From a virus (Duplodnaviria > Heunggongvirae > Uroviricota > Caudoviricetes): 30,303 bases of DNA. The position numbers and the translations under genes are program-made. Below are positions 2,711 to 30,303 of the stretch, piece after piece. The number at the start of each line of letters is the position of its first letter. Position 1 is the first letter of the stretch. The stretch lies in the IMG/VR virus record IMGVR_UViG_2563366964_000009. One strand, given 5' to 3'. The notes below the pieces were generated by a model, which saw only the letters and a list, made by a program, of their open reading frames with translations, did no database searches and had not been told where the DNA came from.

Positions 2711-3012
2711 TGTCCTGTTCTCATTCAGTTGTATTACTGAATAACGCCTTAAAAATCGCCGTTATGAAAAATGGCGATTTGTCTCTTATTCAACTTGGTC
2801 TTGATAAAGAAAAACGCGAAATAACTGAATCTGTTATCGCGATTTATCAGAGTGAATTAAACCTCCTGTCTGATGTGGTCAATTTACTTGTTAAACGCGC
2901 TGTATTTCACAAGCAAATTTCCTCCGTGGATGAACTGACGAAATTAACGACAGAAATCGCCAGCTATTGCGCTGATGAATTTAAAAAACTGAACGACAAA
3001 AGGAACTGGTAA
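2707..3012 (+). CDS. Hypothetical early protein (P2 orf81 position)
   Basis: 101-aa ORF whose start overlaps the previous stop (ATGA-type coupling); AT-richer than its neighbours. Confidence 0.6.
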
Positions 3013-3236
3013 TGCCGGACAACGTAGATTTTATTCAGGAACAACAGGCTGAATTACTGGAGCGCCAGATTAACGCGGCAAGGGTAAAACATTGCGGTGC
3101 TTCTGCGCTGGTTTGCGAAGAGTGTGACGCGCCAATACCTGCTGCCCGTCGTGCGGCTTACCCGTCAGCCACGCGTTGTGTTTCCTGTCAGTCAGTCTTT
3201 GAAGCAAAAAACAAACATTACCGGAGAACGGCATGA
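3012..3236 (+). CDS. TraR/DksA-family C4 zinc-finger protein (P2 orf82 position)
   Basis: 74 aa with a CxxC...CxxC arrangement (CEECDAP...CVSCQ); translationally coupled to neighbours. Confidence 0.75.
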   Translation: MPDNVDFIQEQQAELLERQINAARVKHCGASALVCEECDAPIPAARRAAYPSATRCVSCQSVFEAKNKHYRRTA

Positions 3237-3508
3237 GTATTCGTATTGAAATTGGCGAACGTTATGTCGTTACCAGTGACAGCTTTCAGTTTATTCTCCA
3301 CGAGAAAAAGAGAGCGGAAAGCGGTAAAAACGCCGGTCAGGAATGGCTGGCGGTGGTTGGTTATTACCCGAAATTAAGCCAGCTCGTTTCCGGCCTGATG
3401 CATCACGATATTCTGACCGGAAGCGCAAAGTCTTTTGCTGATTTAAACGCGCAGGTTGAGCAACTCAGCAAGCGTTGTTCAGAGGCTTTTGGCTCATATG
3501 GCCGTTAA
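3233..3508 (+). CDS. Hypothetical early protein (P2 orf83 position)
   Basis: 91-aa ORF overlapping the previous stop; immediately precedes A. Confidence 0.6.
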   Translation: MSIRIEIGERYVVTSDSFQFILHEKKRAESGKNAGQEWLAVVGYYPKLSQLVSGLMHHDILTGSAKSFADLNAQVEQLSKRCSEAFGSYGR

Positions 3509-5780
3509 AGCCTCCGGGCGTTTTGTCCCTCCGTCAGCATTTGCCGCAGGCATCGGTGAGACGTTTACCGGTGCTTATGCATGGAACGCGCCACGCGAGG
3601 CCGTCGGGCGCGAAAGACCCCTTACACGTGACGAGATGCGTCAGGTGCAAGGTGTTTTATCCACGATTAATCGCCTGCCTTACTTTTTGCGCTCGCTGTT
3701 TACTTCACGCTATGACTACATCCGGCGCAATAAAAGCCCGGTGCACGGGTTTTATTTCCTCACATCCACTTTTCAGCGTCGTTTATGGCCGCGCATTGAG
3801 CGCGTTAATCAGCGCCATGAAATGAACACCGACGCGTCGTTGCTGTTTCTGGCAGAGCGTGACCACTATGCGCGCCTGCCTGGAATGAATGACAAGGAGC
3901 TGAAAAAGTTTGCCGCCCGTATCTCATCGCAGCTTTTCATAATGTATGAGGAACTCTGCGATGCCTGGGTGGATGCGCATGGCGAGAAAGAATCGCTGTT
4001 TACGGATGAGGCGCAGGCTCACCTGTATGGTCATGTTGCTGGCGCTGCACGTGCTTTCAATATTTCCCCGCTCTACTGGAAAAAATACCGTAAAGGGCAG
4101 ATGACCACGAGGCAGGCATATTCTGCCATTGCCCGTCTGTTTAACGATGAATGGTGGACTCATCAGCTTAAAGGCCAGCGTATGCGCTGGCATGAGGCGT
4201 TACTGATTGCTGTCGGGGAGGTCAATAAAGACCGTTCTCCTTATGCCAGTAAACATGCCATTCGTGATGTGCGTGCGCGCCGCCAGGCAAATCTGGAATT
4301 TCTTAAATCGTGTGACCTTGAAAACAGGGAAACCGGCGAGCGCATCGACCTTATCAGTAAGGTGATGGGCAGTATTTCTAATCCAGAAATTCGCCGGATG
4401 GAGCTGATGAACACCATCGCCGGTATTGAGCGTTACGCCGCCGCAGAGGGTGATGTGGGGATGTTTATCACGCTGACCGCGCCGTCAAAGTATCACCCGA
4501 CACGTCAGGTCGGAAAAGGCGAAAGTAAAACCGTCCAGCTTAATCACGGCTGGAACGATGAGGCATTTAATCCAAAGGATGCGCAGCGTTATCTCTGCCG
4601 CATCTGGAGCCTGATGCGCACGGCATTCAAGGATAATGATTTACAGGTCTACGGTTTGCGTGTCGTCGAGCCACACCACGACGGAACGCCGCACTGGCAT
4701 ATGATGCTTTTTTGTAATCCACGCCAGCGTAACCAGATTATCGAAATCATGCGGCGCTATGCGCTCAAAGAGGATGGTGACGAAAGAGGAGCCGCGCGAA
4801 ACCGTTTTCAGGCAAAGCACCTTAACCGGGGCGGTGCTGCGGGATATATCGCGAAATACATTTCAAAAAATATCGACGGCTATGCACTGGATGGTCAGCT
4901 CGATAACGATACCGGTAAGCCGCTTAAAGACACTGCAGCGGCTGTTACCGCATGGGCGTCAACGTGGCGCATCCCGCAATTTAAAACGGTTGGACTGCCG
5001 ACAATGGGGGCTTACCGTGAACTACGCAAATTGCCTCGCGGCGTCAGTATTGCTGATGAGTTTGACGAACGCGTCGAGGCTGCTCGCGCTGCCGCAGACA
5101 GTGGTGATTTTGCGTTGTATATCAGCGCGCAGGGTGGGGCAAATGTCCCGCGCGATTGTCAGACTGTCAGGGTTGCCCGTAGCCCGTCGGATGACGTTAA
5201 CGAGTACGAGGAAGAAGTCGAGAGAGTGGTCGGCATTTACGCGCCGCATCTCGGCGCGCGTCATATTCATATCACCAGAACGACGGACTGGCGCATTGTT
5301 CCGAAAGTTCCGGTCGTTGAGCCTTTGACTTTAAAAAGCGGCATCGCCGCGCCTCGGAGTCCTGTCAATAACTGTGGAAAACTCACCGGTGGTGATACTT
5401 CGTTACCGGCTCCCACACCTTCTGAGCACGCCGCAGCAGTGCTTAATCTGGTTGATGACGGTGTTATCGAATGGAGTGACCCGGAGGTCGTGAGGGCGCT
5501 CAGAGGTGCATTAAAACACAGTCGGAGAACGCCAAGTCGTCAGCAAAGAAACGGAAGCCCGTTAAAACCACATGAAATTGCACCATCGGCCAGACTGACC
5601 CGGTCGGAAAGAATGCAAATTACCCGTATCCGCGTTGACCTTGCTCAGAACGGTATCAGGCCGCAGCGATGGGAGCTTGAGGCGCTGGCGCGTGGCGCGA
5701 CCGTAAATTATGATGGGAAAAAATTCACGTATCCGGTTGTTGATGAGTGGCGGTGGTATATAGTTGATGGTAGGCGGTGA
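3498..5780 (+). CDS. A: Replication initiation protein A (rolling-circle nicking endonuclease); start taken at MAVKASGRF, alternative ATG at 3456
   Basis: 760-aa ORF; contains the tyrosine-rich active-site block GYIAKYISKNIDGY typical of P2 gpA/phiX174 A-type initiators; conserved position after the small early ORFs. Confidence 0.9.
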   Translation: MAVKASGRFVPPSAFAAGIGETFTGAYAWNAPREAVGRERPLTRDEMRQVQGVLSTINRLPYFLRSLFTSRYDYIRRNKSPVHGFYFLTSTFQRRLWPRIERVNQRHEMNTDASLLFLAERDHYARLPGMNDKELKKFAARISSQLFIMYEELCDAWVDAHGEKESLFTDEAQAHLYGHVAGAARAFNISPLYWKKYRKGQMTTRQAYSAIARLFNDEWWTHQLKGQRMRWHEALLIAVGEVNKDRSPYASKHAIRDVRARRQANLEFLKSCDLENRETGERIDLISKVMGSISNPEIRRMELMNTIAGIERYAAAEGDVGMFITLTAPSKYHPTRQVGKGESKTVQLNHGWNDEAFNPKDAQRYLCRIWSLMRTAFKDNDLQVYGLRVVEPHHDGTPHWHMMLFCNPRQRNQIIEIMRRYALKEDGDERGAARNRFQAKHLNRGGAAGYIAKYISKNIDGYALDGQLDNDTGKPLKDTAAAVTAWASTWRIPQFKTVGLPTMGAYRELRKLPRGVSIADEFDERVEAARAAADSGDFALYISAQGGANVPRDCQTVRVARSPSDDVNEYEEEVERVVGIYAPHLGARHIHITRTTDWRIVPKVPVVEPLTLKSGIAAPRSPVNNCGKLTGGDTSLPAPTPSEHAAAVLNLVDDGVIEWSDPEVVRALRGALKHSRRTPSRQQRNGSPLKPHEIAPSARLTRSERMQITRIRVDLAQNGIRPQRWELEALARGATVNYDGKKFTYPVVDEWRWYIVDGRR

Positions 5781-5956
5781 AAAGTTGAAGATGTGAACAC
5801 TGTTATTGGTAGGTAAGTAGATTTGTATGTATAAAGTAGTTGTTGTAGATATGAACAATCAGGCGTAGAATCGCCAGCCGGCTATGATGATTCCAGATGA
5901 TAATGGTTATCATTAGCTGTTGATTTATGATGTTCTTAACCACTAGAGAGACTAAT

Positions 5957-6154
5957 ATGAGCAAAAAGGTTATCACGATACAAGTAAGAGGTGGGCACGC
6001 AGGTGCTAAGCCTGTTCGTCGTTCAAAACTTGAACAAAGTGTTAATCGTTCCCTGCGTGCTTCGTTTTCTCTGGAAGGTAATCACATTACCAACACTTCA
6101 TGGTCTAAAATGTCGCAGGCTGCACGTTTTCTGACCAGAGTGGCTGTTGCTTAA
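5957..6154 (+). CDS. Small basic protein carrying a Fic-inhibitory-helix-like motif (candidate FicA-type antitoxin)
   Basis: 65-aa ORF from the ATG at 5957 (GAGAG SD-like upstream); motif S-F-S-L-E-G at 6062-6079 matches [S/T]xxxE[G/N]; its stop overlaps the convergent Fic gene stop in a shared TTAA (6151-6154). Confidence 0.5.
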   Translation: MSKKVITIQVRGGHAGAKPVRRSKLEQSVNRSLRASFSLEGNHITNTSWSKMSQAARFLTRVAVA

Positions 6155-7257
6155 AGCTCTTTGATTGCCCTTGAAATAAGGGCAATCAGATTTCTGTTAC
6201 TGTCGTGTATTGCGCGTCTTACAGCATAATGGTACGCACGTTTATTTCGCACATCTCCATCTAGCTTTTCCATATCAAATTCATAACCCATAGTAGTTGC
6301 AACAATCTGAAGAAATAATCGTATTGAACGACCATTACCATCTTGAAAGGGGTGGATCCATGCGATTTCTGCATGGAGAGTAGCTAGTTTATGAACTAAC
6401 TCTGCTTTAGAATTTATTTTGCTAAGTTCTTTTTTTGTGCAACCTCTAAGACAGGCTTTTAATGATTTTTTGACTTCATTATGTTCCATTGTTGGTCGCT
6501 CTTTATCTCCAACAACAACGGGATGGTTTCTGTATTCACCTGCCCAATCATAAATATGGCCAAAAAGAGCTTTATGGCATTCTAAGATCGTCTTTTCATT
6601 AATTGTTTTATTTTTGTCGGAGACATAGTTTATTATGAGCTGCGTACTTTTGATATATGAAATAACCATTTCGGCAAATTCAACTTGGTATTGATATTTT
6701 GCAAATACTAGATTTTTTGTTGCCATGTATTCATATCTTTCATTTTTCCCGTCACGTAAAAGAAAAATATTGTCTTTTTGGTGCTTTACTTTGATTACAT
6801 GATTGCGTTGAAATGGAAAGTTTTTGTCGTGAGGCAATATGTGAAAATAAGTTTCTTTTTTTAGCTTGTCTACACCAACAATTGAACCAAAAAGAAAAAG
6901 GGCTGCTGTTGTATTAAATAAAACACATACGGAGTCGCCAAGTTGTATCTCTTCGCGACTTAGATCGCATGTTTTTTTCTTATAATTAAATAAATGGGCG
7001 ATAGATGGTATGCTGTGATGATTGCGCAATGAACCTGAGCCACATATGACTTCTTTTGTCCTGCTATTCCAGTAATAATTAATGCTTCTCTTATTCTCTT
7101 GTGTTCTTTTTATATGAACCAACTTGAAGCTAAGTAGGCTTAAAGAGAATTCACCATTCTTTTTGACTATATTAACTTTTTGGTGTTTCATTTTGTTTTT
7201 TTTGTTAGTGTTATTGAAAAATGTTTTGAAGGTATCATGTTTTGAGTAAGAATGCAT
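6151..7257 (-). CDS. Fic/Doc-family protein (predicted AMP-transferase toxin) with an uncharacterised ~200-aa N-terminal domain
   Basis: 368-aa minus-strand ORF; canonical Fic active-site motif HPFQDGNGRSIR preceded by the core block KALFGHIYDWAGEYRN; strongly AT-rich, K/N/I/F/Y-rich N-terminal half. Confidence 0.85.
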   Translation of the reverse strand: MHSYSKHDTFKTFFNNTNKKNKMKHQKVNIVKKNGEFSLSLLSFKLVHIKRTQENKRSINYYWNSRTKEVICGSGSLRNHHSIPSIAHLFNYKKKTCDLSREEIQLGDSVCVLFNTTAALFLFGSIVGVDKLKKETYFHILPHDKNFPFQRNHVIKVKHQKDNIFLLRDGKNERYEYMATKNLVFAKYQYQVEFAEMVISYIKSTQLIINYVSDKNKTINEKTILECHKALFGHIYDWAGEYRNHPVVVGDKERPTMEHNEVKKSLKACLRGCTKKELSKINSKAELVHKLATLHAEIAWIHPFQDGNGRSIRLFLQIVATTMGYEFDMEKLDGDVRNKRAYHYAVRRAIHDSNRNLIALISRAIKEL

Positions 7258-7620
7258 GGTTATTATAACATGTTAGAGTTTTATCGCTAAAAAATGGATG
7301 TAGTGAGAAGTTTGTTGCTCATGACATTTACACTTAAGATGAACAGGAGGTGCTGTTTCGGTAAGATTATCTTTGTCCCATCACATAGCACAGCTCAATT
7401 TATCACTCATATCTTCATTTCCTTCCAGTGACAACACAAAGCTTTAAAGTCACCTTCTGTGATGCTGCTTTATGTCATTTCATAAGATCAGAGTTATGCA
7501 TGCATTAGGTGCATGGCTTTGCATGTATCAGAATTATACGTTTTCGGCGTCCGACATCACAGCTAGTTTGGATTCAGAGATGTCATGCAACCGCATTAAA
7601 ACCTCCACATGAAGCGGGCG

Positions 7621-7639
7621 GGCGAGGCGGGGAAAGCAC
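7621..7639. other. cos site (19-nt cohesive-end sequence, P2 type)
   Basis: Sequence GGCGAGGCGGGGAAAGCAC matches the P2 cohesive end as recalled; lies just outside the end of Q as in P2. Confidence 0.7.
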
Positions 7640-7781
7640 TGCGCGCTGGCGGTGGTGCGGATTTTATTTTTTCAGCGTCTCAGCGCGTCGTGACGGCGCT
7701 TAGTCTGCCCGTTGAGGCGTTGGTGTGTCTGCGGGGTGTTTTGTGCGGTGGTGAGCGTGTGAGGGGGTGATGACGGGGTGT

Positions 7782-7803
7782 AAAAAAGCCGCCCGCAGGC
7801 GGC
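7782..7803 (-). terminator. Rho-independent terminator downstream of Q (minus strand)
   Basis: On the minus strand the region reads GCCGCC-TGCG-GGCGGC followed by a T-run (plus strand: AAAAAAGCCGCCCGCAGGCGGC), a few nt past the Q stop. Confidence 0.6.
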
Positions 7804-7808
7804 GATGT

Positions 7809-8843
7809 TCAGCCGTTGTCAGTGTCCAGTGAGTAGTTTTTAAATCGGATGACCTCCTGACCGAGCCAGCCGTTTATTTCGCGGATCCTGTCCTGTAACG
7901 GGATAAGCTCATTGCGGACAAAGACCTTTGCCACTTTCTCAATATCACCCAGCGACCCGACGTTCTCCGGCTTGCCCCCCATCAACTGAAAGGGGATGCG
8001 ATGCGCGTCCAGCAGGTCAGCGGCGCTGGCTTTTTTGATATTAAAAAAATCGTCCTTCGTTGCCACTTCACTGAGCGGGATAATTTTAATGCCGTCGGCT
8101 TTCCCCTGTGGGGCATAGAGAAACAGATTTTTAAAGTTATTGCGGCCTTTCGACTTAACCATGTTTTCGCGAAGCATTTCGATATCGTTGCGATCCTGCA
8201 CGGCATCGGTGACGTACATGATGTATCCGGCATGAGCGCCGTTTTCGTAATACTTGCGGCGGAACAGCGTGGCCGACTCATTCAGCCAGGCAGAGTTAAG
8301 GGCGCTGAGATATTCCGGCAGGCCGTACAGCTCCTGATTAATATCCGGCTCCAGCAGGTGAAACACGGAGCCGGGTGCGAAGGCTGTCGGCTCGTTGAAG
8401 GACGGCACCCACCAGTAAACATCCTCTTCCACACCACGGCGGGTATATTTTGCCGGTGAGGTTTCCAGTCTGATGACCTTACCGGTGGTGCTGTAACGCT
8501 TTTCCAGAAACGCATTACCGAACACCAGAAAATCCAGCACAAAGCGGCTGAAATCCTGTTGCGAAAGCCACGGATGCGGGATAAACGTTGAAGCCAGAAT
8601 ATTGCGTTTGACGTAAATCGGTGAGCTGTGATGCACGGCAGCACGCAGGCTTTTTGCCAGACCGGTAAAGCTGACCGGTGGCTCATACCATCTGCCGTTA
8701 CTGATGCACTCGACGTAATCCAGAATGTCACGGCGGTCGAGTACCGGCACCGGCTCACCAAAGGTGAATGCCTCCATTTTCGGGGCGCTGGCGGTCATTG
8801 TTTTTGCCGCAGGTTGCGGTGTTTTCCCTTTTTTCTTGCTCAT
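7809..8843 (-). CDS. Q: Portal protein
   Basis: 344 aa; N-terminus MSKKKGKTPQPAAK... and overall sequence resemble P2 gpQ as recalled; adjacent to cos and terminase. Confidence 0.95.
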   Translation of the reverse strand: MSKKKGKTPQPAAKTMTASAPKMEAFTFGEPVPVLDRRDILDYVECISNGRWYEPPVSFTGLAKSLRAAVHHSSPIYVKRNILASTFIPHPWLSQQDFSRFVLDFLVFGNAFLEKRYSTTGKVIRLETSPAKYTRRGVEEDVYWWVPSFNEPTAFAPGSVFHLLEPDINQELYGLPEYLSALNSAWLNESATLFRRKYYENGAHAGYIMYVTDAVQDRNDIEMLRENMVKSKGRNNFKNLFLYAPQGKADGIKIIPLSEVATKDDFFNIKKASAADLLDAHRIPFQLMGGKPENVGSLGDIEKVAKVFVRNELIPLQDRIREINGWLGQEVIRFKNYSLDTDNG

Positions 8844-10615
8844 CAGTAAAACTCCAGAATGGTGGATGTCAGCGGGGTACTGATACCGGCGGTGAGTGGC
8901 TCATTTAACAGGGCGTGCATGGTCGCCCAGGCGAGGTCGGCGTGGCTGGCTTCCTCGCTGCGGCTGGCCTCATAGGTGGCGCTGCGTCCGCTGCTGGTCA
9001 TGGTCTTGCGGATAGCCATAAACGAGCTGGTGATGTCGGTGGCGCTGACGTCATATTCCAGACAGCCACGGCGAATAACGTCTTTTGCCTTGAGCACCAT
9101 TGCGGTTTTCATTTCCGGCGTGTAGCGGATATCGCGCGCGGCGGGATAGAACGAGCGCACGAGCTGGAACACGCCGACACCGAGGCCGGTGGCATCAATG
9201 CCGATGTATTCGACGTTGTATTTTTCGGTGAGTTTGCGGATGGATTCCGCCTGGGTGGCAAAGTCCATGCCTTTCCACTGGTGACGCTCAAGTATTCTGA
9301 ATTTGCCACCGGCCACCACCGGCGGTGCCAGTACCACGCATCCGGCGCTGTCGCCACGGTGTGACGGGTCGTAACCAATCCATACCGGACGGGAGCCGAA
9401 CGGATTGGCGGCAAACGGCGCATAGTCTTCCCATTCTTCCAGCGTGTCGACCATGCAGCGTTGCAGCTCCTCGAACGGGAACACCGACGCCTTGTCGTCA
9501 ACAAATTCACACATGAACAGGTTTTTAAAATCGTCGGCGCTGTTTTCACGTTTGAGCTGCTCAATGTCGAACAGTGTGCAGCCACCTTTCAGGGCGTCCT
9601 CAATGGTGACAATCTGCCGCCACTGACCGTCCGCACAGAGAAGACCTCCGGCAAGGGCGTTATGACTGACGTCGATTTCCACGCGCTCGGCGGCGCTGGC
9701 GCGTCCCCGGTTGAACAGTTCACCCGACCAGAACGGATAGGCGTCGTGCGCCAGCGTGGACGGGGTGGAGAAATAGGTCGATCGCAGGTGACTCTGTGAG
9801 GCCATACCTGATGCCACCTTACGCAGCACCTGAAAATTCGGGATCCAGAAAATCTCGTCGACGTACAGGTCGCCGTTATGGCTCTGCGCGGTGTTGGAGT
9901 TGGTGCCGAGAAAAATCAGTTTTGCGCCGTTATTGCCCAGGACAATCGGGTCACCGGTCAGGTCAACATCAACCAGACGGGCAAAGGCGATGATGTATTC
10001 GCGGAACACATACGCCTGCGTTTTACTGGCCGACAGAAAAATCTGGTTATGACCGGTTTTCAGGGCGCGCAGCAGCGCCTCGCGGGAAAAATAAAACGTC
10101 GCGCCAATCTGGCGGGATTTCAGGATATCGCGGATGCGGTGCTCAAGCCCGGCGCGATACCAGTGCAACTGATAGTCGAAAGACTGCTCAAAGAAAATCT
10201 GCTCCAGCTTTTCGATGGCCTCGTCACTGAAAAAATTCTTTTTCGGTTTGCGCCGCCCGCCTTTGTTGCGGTTAGCGACGTTCGGATTAAGGTCTGCCTC
10301 GTTGCCGGTCTGGCTGTAGCGGTTGACCCGTGCCAGTCGTTCAATCTGGCGTCCGAGCAGGTCAATTTCCTTGAAGTCACCGCCGGTTTTCTGCGGTTTG
10401 ATGATGAGCTGGGTCAGCCGCGCTTCCAGACTCATTTCGACACGGCTGATGGGGGCAACGCTGTCCCAGCCGTCGCGCTGTTTCCAGCTCTGCACCGTCG
10501 GGCGTTTCATCTGCAACATGGCGGCAATCTGCGGCACGGAAAACCCCTGCCAGTACAGCAGCGCCGCCTGACGACGCGGGTCGTGTAAAAGAGTGGTGTC
10601 TGTGGTGATGGTCAT
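8843..10615 (-). CDS. P: Terminase large subunit (ATPase/nuclease)
   Basis: N-terminus MTITTDTTLLHDPRRQAALLYWQGFSVPQIAAMLQ resembles P2 gpP; the ORF-track start at 10645 is a TTG and the ATG at 10613-10615 is preferred; stop overlaps the Q start. Confidence 0.95.
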   Translation of the reverse strand: MTITTDTTLLHDPRRQAALLYWQGFSVPQIAAMLQMKRPTVQSWKQRDGWDSVAPISRVEMSLEARLTQLIIKPQKTGGDFKEIDLLGRQIERLARVNRYSQTGNEADLNPNVANRNKGGRRKPKKNFFSDEAIEKLEQIFFEQSFDYQLHWYRAGLEHRIRDILKSRQIGATFYFSREALLRALKTGHNQIFLSASKTQAYVFREYIIAFARLVDVDLTGDPIVLGNNGAKLIFLGTNSNTAQSHNGDLYVDEIFWIPNFQVLRKVASGMASQSHLRSTYFSTPSTLAHDAYPFWSGELFNRGRASAAERVEIDVSHNALAGGLLCADGQWRQIVTIEDALKGGCTLFDIEQLKRENSADDFKNLFMCEFVDDKASVFPFEELQRCMVDTLEEWEDYAPFAANPFGSRPVWIGYDPSHRGDSAGCVVLAPPVVAGGKFRILERHQWKGMDFATQAESIRKLTEKYNVEYIGIDATGLGVGVFQLVRSFYPAARDIRYTPEMKTAMVLKAKDVIRRGCLEYDVSATDITSSFMAIRKTMTSSGRSATYEASRSEEASHADLAWATMHALLNEPLTAGISTPLTSTILEFY

Positions 10616-18948: not shown

Positions 18949-19552
18949 TTCGCGACTGCTGCCGACCGGCTCATCACCGCTTGAAGTTGCCGCCGCAAAA
19001 GCCTGTGCGGAAATTGAAAAAACGCCGGTCAGTATTCGTGAACTGTGGAACCCGGATACCTGCCAGGCAAATCTGCTGCCGTGGCTGGCGTGGTCATTTT
19101 CGGTTGACCGCTGGGATGATAAGTGGCCGGAAGCGACAAAACGCGCTGTTATCCGCGATGCGTATTTCATTCACTGTCATAAAGGCACTATAGGTGCAAT
19201 CCGGCGTGTGGTGGAGCCGCTCGGCTATCTGATTGAGGTGAGGGAGTGGTGGCAGCTCAACGAGGAGCCGGGGACGTTCCGTATCGTTGTTGGCGTGCTT
19301 GAGCAGGGTATTACCGAAGAAATGTATCAGGAGCTGGAGCGCCTCGTTGCTGATGCAAAACCGGCGAGCCGCCATCTGACGGGACTGGCTATCAGTTTAA
19401 GTACAACCGGCAACATTTTTGCCGGTGCGGGATGCTATCACGGCGACGCCCTGACGGTTTATCCCTACACCCCGGAGGCCATTATTGTCGGAGGGGATTA
19501 TTTCCCGGCCTCGGCCATTCATTTAATTGATAACCTGAGAGTAAACGCATGA
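18941..19552 (+). CDS. I: Baseplate protein I
   Basis: 203 aa; overlaps the J stop and the H start. Confidence 0.9.
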   Translation: MSDSRLLPTGSSPLEVAAAKACAEIEKTPVSIRELWNPDTCQANLLPWLAWSFSVDRWDDKWPEATKRAVIRDAYFIHCHKGTIGAIRRVVEPLGYLIEVREWWQLNEEPGTFRIVVGVLEQGITEEMYQELERLVADAKPASRHLTGLAISLSTTGNIFAGAGCYHGDALTVYPYTPEAIIVGGDYFPASAIHLIDNLRVNA

Positions 19553-20628
19553 CAGTGAAATACTACGCCATTCTGACTAATCAGGGCGCAGCACGGCTGG
19601 CTAACGCGACGATGCTCGGCAGTAAGCTGAATCTGACGCAAATGGCCGTTGGTGATGCGAATGGTGTCTTGCCGACACCAGACCCGGCACAGACAAAACT
19701 GATTAACCAGAAACGCATCGCGCCGCTGAATCTTCTGAGTGTTGACCCGAACAACCAGAGCCAGATTATTGCGGAGCAAATCATCCCTGAGAACGAGGGC
19801 GGATTCTGGATCCGTGAGATTGGGCTTTATGATGATGAAGGCGTACTCATTGCGGTGGCGAACTGCCCGGAAACGTACAAACCGCAGTTGCAGGAAGGCA
19901 GTGGTCGTACCCAGACTATCCGCATGATTCTGGTTGTCACGAATACCGAAGCTATCACGCTGAAAATCGACCCGTCGGTGGTACTGGCGACCCGTAAATA
20001 CGTGGATGATGAAGTCCTGGAATTAAGGCTGTATGTGGATGACCAGATGAGAAACCACATTGCCGCACAGGATCCTCATACCCAGTATGCGCAGAAACAT
20101 AATCCGACATTTACCGGAGAACCAAAAGCGCCGACGCCTGCCGCAGGAAATAACACCACGCGGATTGCGACCACTGCGTTTGTTCAGGCGGCTATTACCG
20201 CTCTGATTAACGGTGCGCCTGCCACGCTGGATACACTGAAAGAAATTGCCGCAGCCATTAACAATGACCCGAAATTCAGCACTACCATTAACAATGCGCT
20301 GGCAGGTAAACAACCGCTGGACAATACGCTGACTCATTTGAGTGGAAAGGATGTTGCCGGTCTTCTCGCATACCTTGGTTTGGGAGAAGGTGCTCCAGCT
20401 GTTGTGGTCCCGTTCGTTTATCCGACAGCGGCTATGCGAACAACTGCATTCGGCTCGGGATCCGTCATGCTACTTTTGGAATATATCGTGGAGTTTTTCA
20501 CTTCCTCAGATTACACGGCCCTGGTGATAAGGTTTCATTTGCCTGTACTATCTCCAGATCAGGCGAAGTTTTTTCGTAGTGGTAATTATGAGAAAGTTGA
20601 GGCAGGTCGGTGCAATTCAGCAAGCTAG
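19549..20628 (+). CDS. H: Tail fibre protein H: constant N-terminal part fused at the crossover site to an ~80-aa variable C-terminal cassette (current orientation)
   Basis: N-terminal ~270 aa resemble P2 gpH (...NTEAITLKIDPSVVLATRKYVDDE..., ...NNALAGKQP...); the crossover site 20363-20388 lies in frame (LLAYLGLGE); total 359 aa, much shorter than P2 H as recalled. Confidence 0.85.
   Translation: MTVKYYAILTNQGAARLANATMLGSKLNLTQMAVGDANGVLPTPDPAQTKLINQKRIAPLNLLSVDPNNQSQIIAEQIIPENEGGFWIREIGLYDDEGVLIAVANCPETYKPQLQEGSGRTQTIRMILVVTNTEAITLKIDPSVVLATRKYVDDEVLELRLYVDDQMRNHIAAQDPHTQYAQKHNPTFTGEPKAPTPAAGNNTTRIATTAFVQAAITALINGAPATLDTLKEIAAAINNDPKFSTTINNALAGKQPLDNTLTHLSGKDVAGLLAYLGLGEGAPAVVVPFVYPTAAMRTTAFGSGSVMLLLEYIVEFFTSSDYTALVIRFHLPVLSPDQAKFFRSGNYEKVEAGRCNSAS
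20363..20388. repeat. Invertase crossover site (gix/hix/pix-like), left copy
   Basis: TTCTCGCATACCTTGGTTTGGGAGAA, an imperfect 26-bp palindrome; matches the reverse complement of 22185-22210 at 21 of 26 positions, with the right 14 bp identical. Confidence 0.7.
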
Positions 20629-21944
20629 GTTGTGTCTACAAACTTTGCACATATCGGTGAGACAGCATGGGGTGTGGCAGGAAACGATATCTCCTATCAT
20701 GATGGCATCACTGGAATTCCGACAGGACGGTCGCAATGCAAAGTTATCTTTTAAGCGCTGAGAAATGTTGGTTTTTTCGTTTCTAGCTGAAAGCCAAATA
20801 TTGGAATTACGGTGCTGGGCACGGCGATAGAATCAAAATTGTTTTCACTGTTGACGGCGAGTCTACAGAGCCGGCCCCAGAACGAAGATTCTGATATGAT
20901 ACTGACACATTTGAGGATTGGGGCTGGTTTCCTGAATCTATTCATGAGGGCGAAATTGCCGCCGCCTGTCCCACTAGTCATGAATCTATTAATAACATCC
21001 ACGGAAGAGTAACCATAATGCAAGGGCCTGGAAGAACGCCGGTTGGTGGCCAGCGCGATGAGAAAGTTGAGCAATACAATAAGGGTCTGGATTTTCTAGA
21101 GGATTATAAACGTGTCGACACATACGGTGCTCTAACGATTGCATGGTCAACGCCATCGGAAGAACGGGACGGTTGGAATCCGGTGACATGTAGTTAGCTG
21201 TTACCGCCACCCGCTGTATATGATCCAGCAGGACATTAACACTGGCTGATTGTGGCTGCAATAGCTTCCATCAGTCTGATTCATTTAAATTAACAGGCCG
21301 GACGGAAGCCGACGCAGGATGAAACAACGCGTGGTACCGCGGTGCTGCAGCGTATTCACCGGGTGAATGCTACGCCTCCGAATATGGCGCCCAATTTTAT
21401 CTAGCCTGATTTGCGTGTGGCGTTGACCGTTCAATAGCGGGAGAACCGTAATTGATGGCCAGTATATATTCCACTGTATCATCCACCCCCAAATTGTATG
21501 GGTCCACATTCTCACCTCTAAGGTCATCATTAGCGCTCCATCCAGTACCTGGAAATACGGCCATGTTTCCCTGAACGTGTTCAACAAGTTCATGACTATT
21601 CAAACAGGCGGCGACACTTAGGTCCGCATGAGTTTATTCTTGAGACTCAACCCTTGACGGAATTCTGTCAGCAACGCATCTATATTATCGTTCTTCTGCT
21701 TCCATTGTAACTAGCGCATTATCATCAACAACAATTTTCATTACATCGCCCTCACATTAACCTTAATCCCGATATGTCGCGGTATGATCGAAACGGAATA
21801 ACGCCCTTTTCCCGGCGATTTAAATGTATAACTGCATCGTGACAATCCTGGCGGATTTTCGCCGAATCCGTATTGAAAGGAAATAGCGTGGGTTGCCACA
21901 CGGCATGCTTAACTAGTGAAATGATCAAAGTTTGCAGACTAAAC

Positions 21945-22210
21945 CTACCTTAATAATATGCAACCACCATCCGCACCTTTATCGTACACCCCGCTACCAG
22001 AGACATCCGCCTGGTCTTGGGATAGTACAAGGGAGTGTCCACTTTTAGACAGGGCAGAGTAACCTGTGAAAGAGCCATACGCCACATTATATCCCCAAGG
22101 CACCCTAAACCACCCCCAGTCAGAAACGATATTTGCCATTGCCGGGGTCGGACAAAAGACCGGGACCACATCCGTTGTAGCACCTTCTCCCAAACCAACG
22201 TTTATGAAAA
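21945..22210 (-). other. Promoterless alternative tail-fibre C-terminal cassette (would be fused to H after inversion)
   Basis: Minus-strand reading frame through the right crossover site encodes ...GLGEGATTDVVPVFCPTPAM..., homologous to the current H C-terminus (...GLGEGAPAVVVPFVYPTAAM...); stop at 21945-21947. Confidence 0.55.
22185..22210. repeat. Invertase crossover site, right copy (inverted)
   Basis: TTCTCCCAAACCAACGTTTATGAAAA; its reverse complement TTTTCATAAACGTTGGTTTGGGAGAA aligns with the left copy. Confidence 0.7.
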
Positions 22211-22259
22211 TGCAGAGATAACGGGCAACTGGCATCATCTCCGGTTTTTATTCAGGGGG

Positions 22260-22859
22260 ATGCTCATGCTTATTGGCTATGTACGCGTGTCAACAAATGA
22301 CCAGAACACGGAATTGCAGCGTAACGCGCTGGAGTGTGCAGGATGTGAGCTGATTTTTGAGGATAAAATCAGCGGTACGAAGTCCGACCGACCGGGACTG
22401 AAAAAACTGCTCAGAACATTATCAGCAGGTGACACTCTGGTAGTCTGGAAGCTGGACCGGCTGGGGCGTAGTATGCGGCATCTGGTCATTCTGGTTGAGG
22501 AGCTGCGCGAACGCGGCGTTAATTTTCGCAGCCTGACAGATGCTATTGATACCAGCACGCCGATGGGGCGTTTTTTCTTTCATGTGATGGGTGCCCTGGC
22601 TGAAATGGAGCGAGAACTCATTGTCGAGCGGACACGCGCCGGACTGGAAGCGGCCAGAGCCAAAGGGCGTATTGGTGGCAGACGTCCGAAGCTCACCGCG
22701 AGTGAGTGGGAACAGGCAGGACGGTTGCTGGCTGCGGGTGAATCACGTCAACGCGTGGCGCTGATTTTTGATATTGGCCTGTCCACGCTCTATAAAAAAT
22801 TCCCCTCATCAGCGGCAAAGAATAAATTGTGTCATCCCTTAGCCAACCGGGACAAATAG
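22260..22859 (+). CDS. Serine recombinase, DNA invertase of the Gin/Hin/Cin/Pin family (start at 22260 or 22266)
   Basis: MLIGYVRVSTNDQNTELQRNAL...GDTLVVWKLDRLGRSMRHL...RFFFHVMGALAEMERELIVERT is a textbook resolvase/invertase catalytic domain (catalytic Ser in YVRVST) with a C-terminal HTH (LSTLYKKF); the ORF-track extension 22035-22259 crosses the crossover site and is not coding for the invertase. Confidence 0.92.
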   Translation: MLMLIGYVRVSTNDQNTELQRNALECAGCELIFEDKISGTKSDRPGLKKLLRTLSAGDTLVVWKLDRLGRSMRHLVILVEELRERGVNFRSLTDAIDTSTPMGRFFFHVMGALAEMERELIVERTRAGLEAARAKGRIGGRRPKLTASEWEQAGRLLAAGESRQRVALIFDIGLSTLYKKFPSSAAKNKLCHPLANRDK

Positions 22860-29221: not shown

Positions 29222-29302
29222 TGTTTTTATTTTATCTGTTTGTTTTATAAGGATAAATTAACTAAAATGGCACCATCAACAAAACCGGAAGAGGTGCTCG
29301 CG

Positions 29303-29521
29303 ATGTTTCATTGTCCTTTATGTCAGCATGCCGCACATGCGCGTACAAGTCGCTATATCACTGACACGACAAAAGAGCGTTATCACCAGTGTCAGAACGT
29401 GAATTGCAGCGCCACGTTCATCACTTATGAGTCGGTACAGCGATACATCGTGAAGCCGGGAGAAGTCCACGCCGTAAGACCGCACCCGTTGCCGTCAGGG
29501 CAGCAAATTATGTGGATGTAA
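29303..29521 (+). CDS. ogr: Late transcription activator Ogr (zinc-finger)
   Basis: 72-aa protein MFHCPLCQHAAHARTSRYITDTTKERYHQCQNVNCSATFITYESV... with a Cys4 zinc finger, matching P2 Ogr as recalled; the ORF-track start at 29240 is a TTG extension. Confidence 0.9.
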   Translation: MFHCPLCQHAAHARTSRYITDTTKERYHQCQNVNCSATFITYESVQRYIVKPGEVHAVRPHPLPSGQQIMWM

Positions 29522-29661: not shown

Positions 29662-30303
29662 ATGGAAAAAGTTATAATTGAGCTTGATAATCGTTGGGAG
29701 TTAGCTGATTTCGCGGTCTTAACGAAAGAGTATTTGCAGCTATATGGTTTTTTTTATGGCCTAAAAGGAGGATCAAGAGGATATTCAACAATGCCTTGGG
29801 AGGGTGGGCACAGTGTGGTGAATTTTTTTAGAGGGGCTTACAGTGCGACTCCACCAGATTTACGTCCTGTAGTGAAAAAAATTCAGTATGCCTCTCCTGG
29901 CTTTATTGAATTGTCTGCTCTTATTGATATCTCTTGGCAGATTGCTGAGTTAGTTACTGCTGTTGGTGGAAGTATTCTGGCTGCCAACAAAGTTTACGAT
30001 CAGGTGATGCGTACATATCGACAAAGAGAATGGGCAAAGTTGAAATCAGAGAAGCTGCGTATACAGAATCAAATTAAAGAGATTGAACTTGTTTCTGACG
30101 CAGTTAAATCACTTGAATCTGTGATGGCACTTAGTGAAGAACAACGTAAAAACTTGGTTCAACTATCGGGGGCAGATGAACTGGTTCAGTTAAAGATACT
30201 TTTGGCTGTTTACCGACGGTTATCTCCTCTTGTTGAGTTGCAAAACAGCGGGAAAGCTAATTTTTCTGCTGGGAAAAATAAAAATTTAAAAGCGTCCGAT
30301 TAA
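29662..30303 (+). CDS. Hypothetical protein, AT-rich, unknown function (prophage-end moron or host-flank gene)
   Basis: 213-aa ORF with ATG at 29662, a GGTGG SD-like sequence and a candidate -10 TATACT at about 29618-29623; lies behind the ogr terminator; AT-rich relative to the phage late genes; I recognise no motif. Confidence 0.55.
   Translation: MEKVIIELDNRWELADFAVLTKEYLQLYGFFYGLKGGSRGYSTMPWEGGHSVVNFFRGAYSATPPDLRPVVKKIQYASPGFIELSALIDISWQIAELVTAVGGSILAANKVYDQVMRTYRQREWAKLKSEKLRIQNQIKEIELVSDAVKSLESVMALSEEQRKNLVQLSGADELVQLKILLAVYRRLSPLVELQNSGKANFSAGKNKNLKASD

Follow-up and report, generated by a model that had tools for sequence, protein, structure and literature searches.

The 30,303-nucleotide stretch of viral DNA deposited as IMG/VR record IMGVR_UViG_2563366964_000009 (hereafter, the whole of it, the window) carries a P2-like prophage in which the slot between replication gene A and the cohesive-end site cos is filled by an AT-rich island that encodes a Fic-domain protein and, convergent with it, a protein of 65 aa. 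What is this cargo, and does it serve in anti-phage defence, as the original prediction for this DNA had proposed? The analysis described below led us to conclude that the island is probably a mobile two-gene class I Fic toxin-antitoxin cassette residing in the P2 gpA-cos (TO) hotspot. That the Fic protein and the 65-aa protein form a toxin-antitoxin pair is, in our view, highly likely. The features on which this conclusion is based are listed in Table 1.

The Fic protein and its convergent partner

The longest reading frame of the minus-strand gene (6151-7257, 368 aa) matched Fic (E = 6.5e-17) as its sole Pfam family, and its product falls into PHROG 10690, which is annotated as 'unknown function'. 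Its motif HPFQDGNGRSIR fits the canonical HxFx[D/E]GN[G/K]RxxR, as expected of the Fic fold and motif of a class I protein, and residues H302, F304, D306, G307, N308, G309, R310 and R313 were invariant in 31 homologues with identities down to 28%. A regular-expression search of the 368-aa protein, made at the sequence level only, revealed no copy of the inhibitory motif [S/T]xxxE[G/N], which is likewise the pattern of class I. The best sequence match in the PDB was VbhT (E = 2e-12). The structure predicted by AlphaFold2 from the 31-sequence alignment (pLDDT 86.7, pTM 0.82; residues 1-20 not confident) is closest in modelled fold to antitoxin-controlled toxins, namely Fic-1 in complex with AntF (8wt0, score 18.8), VbhT in complex with VbhA (3shg, 18.2) and EcFicT in complex with EcFicA (5jff, 17.9). 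The Fic domain is preceded by a family-specific domain that was found in only 10 protein clusters, the full-length members of which have 338-371 aa, the others being shorter. Fusion of this domain to other effectors was considered and ruled out, as there are only these 10 clusters and their full-length members are all of the size of the Fic protein. Comparison with the island copy of Salmonella phage FSL SP-004 gave a pN/pS of about 0.16 for the Fic gene; this ratio is given because dS was saturated.

The start codon of the Fic gene is likely that of Met23 (nt 7191). This assignment was supported by the following observations: (i) most homologues, the PGAP annotation and PHROG 10690 (346/346 positions) begin at the matching MKH, (ii) residues 1-20 of the long form were modelled as disordered, and (iii) a candidate extended -10 element of perfect sequence, TGTTATAAT, would put the transcript start at about the ATG at 7257. 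A scan for consensus promoters found none upstream of either gene and did not report TGTTATAAT, and the regions upstream of Fic aligned from four relatives contained no conserved element. A weak candidate promoter, TTGTAG-17-TAGAAT, was seen by eye at 5843-5871.

The small gene starts at 5927 or 5957, the latter being the start annotated in phage STYP1 and in RefSeq, and its 3' end overlaps that of the convergent Fic gene by 4 nt. Its dN/dS relative to FSL SP-004 was 0.115, which indicates a real protein-coding gene under purifying selection. Residues 36-41 of its product read SFSLEG, so that a small gene with the [S/T]xxxE[G/N] motif lies next to the toxin gene, as in class I systems. NRSLRASFSLEG was invariant in 11 close homologues of the small protein, and when 10 partners with 25-77% identity to the window protein were aligned, no columns other than S36, L39, E40 and G41 proved invariant; an alignment of 20 partner sequences showed one exception, an exchange of E for A. 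When sequences of the same composition were shuffled, SxxLEG appeared in 0.13% of them and the loose motif in 4.1%. The inhibitory site reads ASQRLEG in VbhA and ASRRLEG in YhfG/EcFicA (both sequences were confirmed against the PDB), and hhalign placed ASFSLEG of the window protein in register with these motifs, over 18-25 columns only (E = 0.036 and 0.0086). In its AlphaFold2 model, the small protein is composed of a beta-hairpin and two helices (residues 22-39 and 46-64), and SFSLEG lies where the first predicted helix ends, which is also its reported position in EcFicA (PMC5033356). The presence of a small ORF had been noted in the original prediction, while its role as the constant, inhibitor-motif partner of Fic had been missed.

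At all 10 other loci examined, an ORF of 62-72 aa lies on the strand opposite Fic and tail to tail with it, at Fic identities to the window protein down to 29%. The partner product was read at nine of these loci, and the motif was present in all nine. Where the coordinates of both genes are on record (eight loci), the 3' end of the partner gene lies within about 1 nt of the Fic end or extends across it, with overlaps of up to 41 nt. The loci comprise a P2-like portal-to-GPA slot with an insertion sequence (IS) in Yersinia ruckeri (L017, 61% Fic identity), a Photorhabdus chromosome (L003, 53%), a 4.7-kb Rep3 plasmid of Providencia (L007, 38%), a site adjoining a GPA-family replication gene in Vibrio parahaemolyticus (L009, 35%), a contig of GCA_015689235.1 on which the pair stands beside BubE/ThiF/Multi_ubiq and a UvrD-PDDEXK gene (P0041, 34%), a metagenomic locus beside ParA/ParB (L015, 33%), a chromosome-like metagenomic locus (L016, 30%) and a locus of Aliivibrio fischeri beside ParA and DinI (L005, 29%); besides L017, the tail-to-tail pair also occupies the P2-like slot of L018, and the copy in phage FSL SP-004 is counted among the 10 loci. 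Fic and its partner travel as a unit through phage, plasmid-like and chromosomal loci. The one short Fic relative examined from the PDC-S04-like clade (P0052) has no convergent partner, and the arrangement therefore appears to be tied to the branch with the N-terminal domain.

Some details of these loci may be added. The convergent partner on the P0041 contig has 71 aa, and its surroundings, with genes of a bacterial ubiquitin-like system and a UvrD-PDDEXK/M78 gene, resemble a defence island. In L017, the partner ORF (positions 4100-4800, identical to P0015) is present though it was not called as a gene in that assembly, and the IS, which encodes an rve transposase, has come to separate the module from the element's P2-like GPA gene.

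Directly after the stop codon of the small ORF, and within the last Fic codons, the DNA encodes a terminator-like hairpin (-18.9 kcal/mol, z = -4.7). An equivalent hairpin exists in Photorhabdus (z = -5.1) despite sequence divergence, and none was found in the Vibrio-type relatives. The terminator scan returned no terminator-like site for Fic, nor any from gene A to the small ORF. Since the two genes end tail to tail, no terminator can fit between them, and since the hairpin lies inside Fic, their transcripts probably interfere or pair, which would add control at the RNA level. Transcripts of Fic would run antisense through the small ORF, and early-operon transcription that continues past gene A could boost the small ORF while the phage itself grows lytically.

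We read the pair as class I because the Fic motif is complete and invariant, the Fic protein has no inhibitory motif of its own, and the invariant residues of its constant partner are those of SxxLEG. For the class I scheme and the mechanism of inhibition we follow Engel et al. (2012) in the summary given by PMC5033356, according to which an inhibitory motif is required by nearly all competent Fic enzymes.

The island, its slot and its distribution

A BLAST comparison with P2 (NC_001895, joined across cos) gave 96.9% identity over window positions 3000-5751 and 97.5% over 7593-9000, and no match to P2 was found between 5751 and 7593. The island so delimited has a GC content of 36.2%; for the slightly shifted interval of the original prediction (5781-7620), the value was 36.3%, as compared with 53.7% elsewhere in the window. 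It is the lowest-GC stretch of 1.84 kb in the window, 4.4 standard deviations below the outside reference (15 non-overlapping windows, 54.0 ± 4.0%, minimum 46.6%), and the sliding GC fraction falls from 0.52-0.56 across gene A to 0.32-0.34 at 6500-7500 and returns to 0.55 at 7500-8000. At third codon positions, GC was 28% in Fic and 33% in the small ORF versus 50-71% in int, A, Q and P. The left junction falls in the last 29 nt of gene A (5752-5780), so that the A protein departs from its P2 counterpart in its C-terminal residues. The 363 bp from 7258 to 7620 contain no supported gene, and a search of Rfam over 5600-7900 gave no match. The repeat search returned nothing meaningful, with no repeats in the non-coding stretch 7258-7592, which showed no conservation in relatives either. 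The equivalent interval of P2 comprises orf91 on the plus strand and then tin and old, both on the minus strand, their transcription beginning about 150 bp from cosR. Fic is read in the direction of old and tin, away from cos and towards A, whereas the small ORF is oriented as orf91 is.

Table 1 Features of the island and its flanks in the window (strand "." where none applies)
Feature	Position	Strand	Remarks
AT-rich island	5752..7592	.	1,841 bp; horizontally acquired; takes the place of P2 orf91-tin-old; from the P2 homology gap and GC
Fic-domain protein, putative class I Fic toxin	6151..7191	-	346 aa from Met23; longest ORF, to 7257, 368 aa
Catalytic Fic motif HPFQDGNGRSIR	6319..6354	-	Residues 302-313 (368-aa numbering); by regular expression
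Family-specific N-terminal beta-rich domain	6724..7191	-	Residues 23-178; fused to the Fic domain
Candidate extended -10 element TGTTATAAT	7262..7270	-	4 nt upstream of the 7257 ATG; minus strand reads ...CTAACATGTTATAATAACCATG; by eye
65-aa partner gene, putative FicA/VbhA-type antitoxin	5957..6154	+	WP_016236400; PHROG 9918, 'unknown function'
Codons for S36-F-S-L-E40-G41 (SFSLEG)	6062..6079	+	Matches the Fic-inhibition motif [S/T]xxxE[G/N]
14-bp stem-loop, then U-rich tract UUUCUGUU	6160..6190	+	Terminator-like for the small ORF; terminator scan
Island-specific non-coding DNA, Fic to P2 cos region	7258..7592	.	In the same 12 E. coli genomes as Fic
P2 replication gene A	3456..5780	+	Left flank; Pfam Phage_GPA, E = 1e-123; 96.9% identity to P2 up to 5751
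P2 cos 19-nt cohesive end GGCGAGGCGGGGAAAGCAC	7621..7639	+	Exact match to P2 cosL/cosR; landmark bounding the slot
P2 portal gene Q	7809..8843	-	Right flank; Pfam Phage_portal; 97.5% identity to P2

The island thus lies between A and cos/Q, where cargo of the P2 gpA-gpQ (TO) region is found, and the content of this slot varies between prophages. The cos-Q backbone (7600-8843, coverage of at least 80%) was detected in 1,534 of 5,426 complete Escherichia coli genomes and the island in 12 of the 5,426, the non-coding part, searched separately, being present in the same 12. Two other prophages, picked at random (L013 and L014), carry other cargo in the slot, an S8 peptidase with an AAA ATPase in one and a SacI-type restriction-modification system in the other. 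Near-identical islands occur in Salmonella phage STYP1, in phage R18C and in Yersinia phages vB_YpM_22, VB-YPM-18 and 476A/B. A copy with 76% nucleotide identity is present in Salmonella phage FSL SP-004, a member of another Peduoviridae genus, where it is flanked by the replication gene on one side and by the record end on the other. The island is foreign, rare and variable cargo in place of tin/old.

Most of what the original prediction had said of the locus was borne out by these results: an AT-rich insert of about 1.8 kb, acquired horizontally as variable cargo in place of tin/old, made up of a convergent Fic gene, a small ORF and about 360 bp of non-coding DNA up to cos, and set in a conventional P2 backbone. 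The flanks proved to be about 97% identical to P2. The slot is the A-to-cos hotspot of the literature, which had already been defined by Rousset et al. 2022 (PMC9122126) and Vassallo et al. 2022 (PMC9519451) and is called the TO region in the R18C paper (PMC6823313), where a Fic-like ORF45 is reported in it. Moreover, Table S5 of Rousset et al. (PMC9122126) lists 'Fic + hypothetical' with WP_016236400, the RefSeq accession of the small ORF described here; the Fic pair was not among the systems tested by these authors, and there is no 'Fic' in their Table S2 (PMC9122126). The hotspot and a Fic gene within it are therefore already on record, and in this respect the island is a confirmation, not a discovery. 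The cargo has been catalogued, but we found no description of it in the literature as a toxin-antitoxin pair. What appears to be new here is the recognition of the pair as a convergent, trans-inhibited variant of Fic toxin-antitoxin systems with a nearly unique fusion domain.

In four E. coli chromosome records (NZ_CP061530, NZ_CP031706, NZ_AP024126 and NZ_CP128584; hits H1 and H4-H6), the island was found at 2284-4121/4124, the same offset as in phage vB_YpM_22. With this shared offset of 2284, the four records appear to begin at the first base of the prophage gene A, probably as a result of assembly rotation to a start gene rather than of biology.

Two further regions of the window are of interest in their own right. 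Just after ogr (29240-29521), an AT-rich plus-strand ORF of 213 aa (29662-30303) matched the PADLOC model PD-T4-10_B (E = 1.3e-34, model positions 139-346 of 353). It matched no Pfam or PHROG family, no PD-T4-10 A partner was visible, and the ORF ends exactly at the end of the window. Homology to phages ends at about 29661, which places this ORF beyond the prophage, in adjacent DNA of the host or of an island. The other region contains a Hin/Gin-type DNA invertase (Resolvase and HTH_7, within 22035-22859) next to a tail-fibre gene (19549-20628) that has only the N-terminal tail-fibre domain. The stretch between the two is ORF-poor, with a GC fraction of 0.45-0.47. A reverse-strand ORF (21945-22238) encodes ..VVPVFCPTPAM.., similar to the ..VVVPFVYPTAAM.. 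junction of the forward tail-fibre ORF, and the only inverted repeat found was a 15-nt pair (20477/21459). Judged from these features, 19549-22859 looks like an invertible segment that would switch host range, and it is lacking in P2 proper.

Relation to known Fic systems

Identity of the Fic domain to those of VbhT/VbhA from Bartonella schoenbuchensis, EcFicT/EcFicA (Fic/YhfG) and Fic-1/AntF from Pseudomonas fluorescens is only 18-24%, and the NCBIfam equivalog cut-offs were missed for VbhT (47.5 versus 800) and EcFic (52 versus 181) and, again widely, for NmFic. The window protein has an extra N-terminal beta-rich domain of 156 residues, which is absent from VbhT, EcFicT and Fic-1, and is devoid of the OB/BID tail of VbhT. 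Its partner gene is convergent and 3'-overlapping, whereas the antitoxin genes of class I FicTA modules are typically located upstream in one operon. For the partner protein, which has a beta-hairpin at its N-terminus, family-level homology to VbhA or FicA was not detected. The data fit a distinct branch of class I, marked by the added N-terminal domain, the convergent gene order and a partner whose resemblance to VbhA/FicA is confined to the inhibitory motif.

Among defence models, PADLOC gave PDC-S04 as the best match (E = 2.7e-33, residues 179-366), followed by SoFic (E = 1.8e-13). The PDC-S04 models describe a single-domain, single-gene system of about 205 aa, to which the window system adds the N-terminal domain and the partner gene. 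SoFic (Millman et al. 2022) is, like the protein proposed here, a Fic AMPylase, one with validated anti-phage activity, and a small gene downstream of it, AS1, neutralises its toxicity (PMC12249575). However, SoFic is a class II protein that contains its own inhibitory helix near the N-terminus as well as a C-terminal domain, whereas the window protein has no internal motif and carries its extra domain at the N-terminus. On these grounds, and with an NCBIfam NF046030 score of 15.1 against a cut-off of 550, membership in SoFic was rejected.

The likeness to P2 old and tin consists in the A-to-cos slot, the orientation of the main gene and the low-GC, moron-type character of the cargo. There is no sequence or mechanistic relation, as Old is an ATPase-nuclease and Tin blocks the growth of T-even phages. 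Doc of phage P1 differs from the window Fic in being a kinase with a degenerate motif that phosphorylates EF-Tu, and Phd differs from the window partner in lying upstream in the Doc operon and in inhibiting differently.

Proposed action of the pair and alternative explanations

In a lysogen, the small protein would bind Fic and set Glu40 against R313, the second arginine of the motif, a contact by which ATP would be bound unproductively. Once the small protein is depleted or displaced, possible triggers being the arrival of a competing phage or the disappearance of the element, free Fic would AMPylate an essential host protein and growth would stop. By analogy with VbhT, Fic-1 and FicT toxins (PMC5033356, PMC7479194), the target of AMPylation would most likely be GyrB or ParE, and the assignment of gyrase or topoisomerase IV as the Fic target is a tentative one, which we hold to be possible rather than probable. 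The growth arrest would abort a superinfecting phage, a function comparable to that of old and tin, and would at the same time make it costly to lose the prophage.

Several observations weigh against interpreting the island as a class I toxin-antitoxin cassette with such a role. The typical operon order with the antitoxin gene upstream (ecficA-ecficT) was not found, since the partner gene lies downstream on the opposite strand, and the promoter assignments were read by eye only. Searches with the small protein of Pfam, NCBIfam and PADLOC and, by single sequence as well as by profile, of the PDB returned nothing meaningful, so that homology of its whole family to VbhA/FicA cannot be claimed, and the hhalign match to the known inhibitors is short and weak (E = 0.0086, probability 5%). 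In the Photorhabdus temperata partner P0056, the single exception mentioned above, SFALAG stands in place of SFxLEG and the Glu is lost; this may be a decayed pair or the partner of an inactive toxin. EcFicT itself displays no detectable AMPylation (PMC5033356), so that neither activity nor target can be read off from a neighbour in fold. With regard to defence, PDC-S04 is an unvalidated candidate family only, and one test of a PDC-S04 locus in its native host revealed no defence (10.1101/2024.12.20.629700).

Similarity to defence databases is limited to this candidate family and, more distantly, SoFic, and the 'likely defence role' of the original prediction was not established. Still, an anti-phage role of the cassette is plausible in view of its slot, its old/tin-like orientation and the similarity to PADLOC models, and phage exclusion as the main benefit of the pair is a serious possibility that falls a little short of being probable. 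The same toxin-antitoxin pair could instead have been selected for stabilisation of the prophage or plasmid that carries it, through post-segregational killing or addiction. The occurrence of the module on a small Rep3 plasmid and beside ParA/ParB genes fits this explanation as well as it fits defence, and the negative PDC-S04 test also speaks for it. On the other hand, integration already confers great stability on a P2 prophage, exclusion genes are strongly over-represented in the slot and one homologue stands in the defence-island-like setting of Bub-like and UvrD-nuclease genes. We regard stabilisation as the selected role as a serious rival, though the less likely one; it is compatible with exclusion, and sequence does not allow a decision between the two. 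A further possibility, which we would put forward with reserve, is that the island represents a distinct, so far unrecognised two-gene anti-phage system in which the N-terminal domain would sense a phage component or recruit the target, and the SxxLEG protein together with the sense-antisense overlap would restrain the toxin; infection with a competing phage would then lead to AMPylation of gyrase, topoisomerase IV or a similar protein and to abortive infection.

Two explanations dispense with the antitoxin or with the bacterial target. Fic could be a self-sufficient single-gene enzyme, that is, a SoFic-like defence protein or a host-modifying moron, next to a small ORF that is unrelated or acts as a regulator at the RNA level only. 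PADLOC indeed treats the clade (PDC-S04) as a candidate made up of one gene, family-level homology of the small protein to known Fic antitoxins was not detected, type II toxin-antitoxin pairs do not typically have a convergent layout, and even for the SoFic partner AS1 the mechanism has not been established (PMC12249575). Against this, the pair was kept at 10/10 other loci, with Fic identities as low as 29%, the partner is invariant only in the residues of an inhibitor motif, the Fic protein has no internal copy of the motif that nearly all competent Fic enzymes need (PMC5033356), and SoFic membership fails by a wide margin (score 15 versus cut-off 550), all of which makes a single-gene enzyme improbable. 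Finally, many Fic proteins are secreted effectors (such as VopS, IbpA and the Bartonella Beps) and some P2-like prophages hold a cytolethal distending toxin in the slot, so that the protein might act as a virulence effector on a eukaryotic host or else serve the lytic cycle of the phage. We consider this most improbable: Fic was the only Pfam family matched, with no secretion or BID-type domain, a cognate partner with an inhibitor motif points to a target inside bacterial cells, the closest structures belong to bacterial toxin-antitoxin toxins and not to effectors, and the gene also occurs in non-pathogenic Aliivibrio and in Photorhabdus, in plasmid-like or chromosomal loci.

Reading the island as a class I Fic toxin-antitoxin cassette provides a specific and cheaply testable hypothesis for the unannotated pair of PHROGs 10690 and 9918. 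If the pair only stabilises its carrier, it would be one more ordinary toxin-antitoxin moron. If the two genes constitute an anti-phage system of their own, what PADLOC lists as a 'single-gene' candidate would in this branch comprise two genes and show a new kind of regulatory layout. If the pair excludes phages, it would join SoFic as a second Fic-based defence, one with a different mechanism, it would mean that class I FicTA modules, which have so far attracted study for their part in growth regulation and in the ancestry of Bartonella effectors, are used in competition between phages, and it would offer a handle on what triggers the release of Fic toxins.

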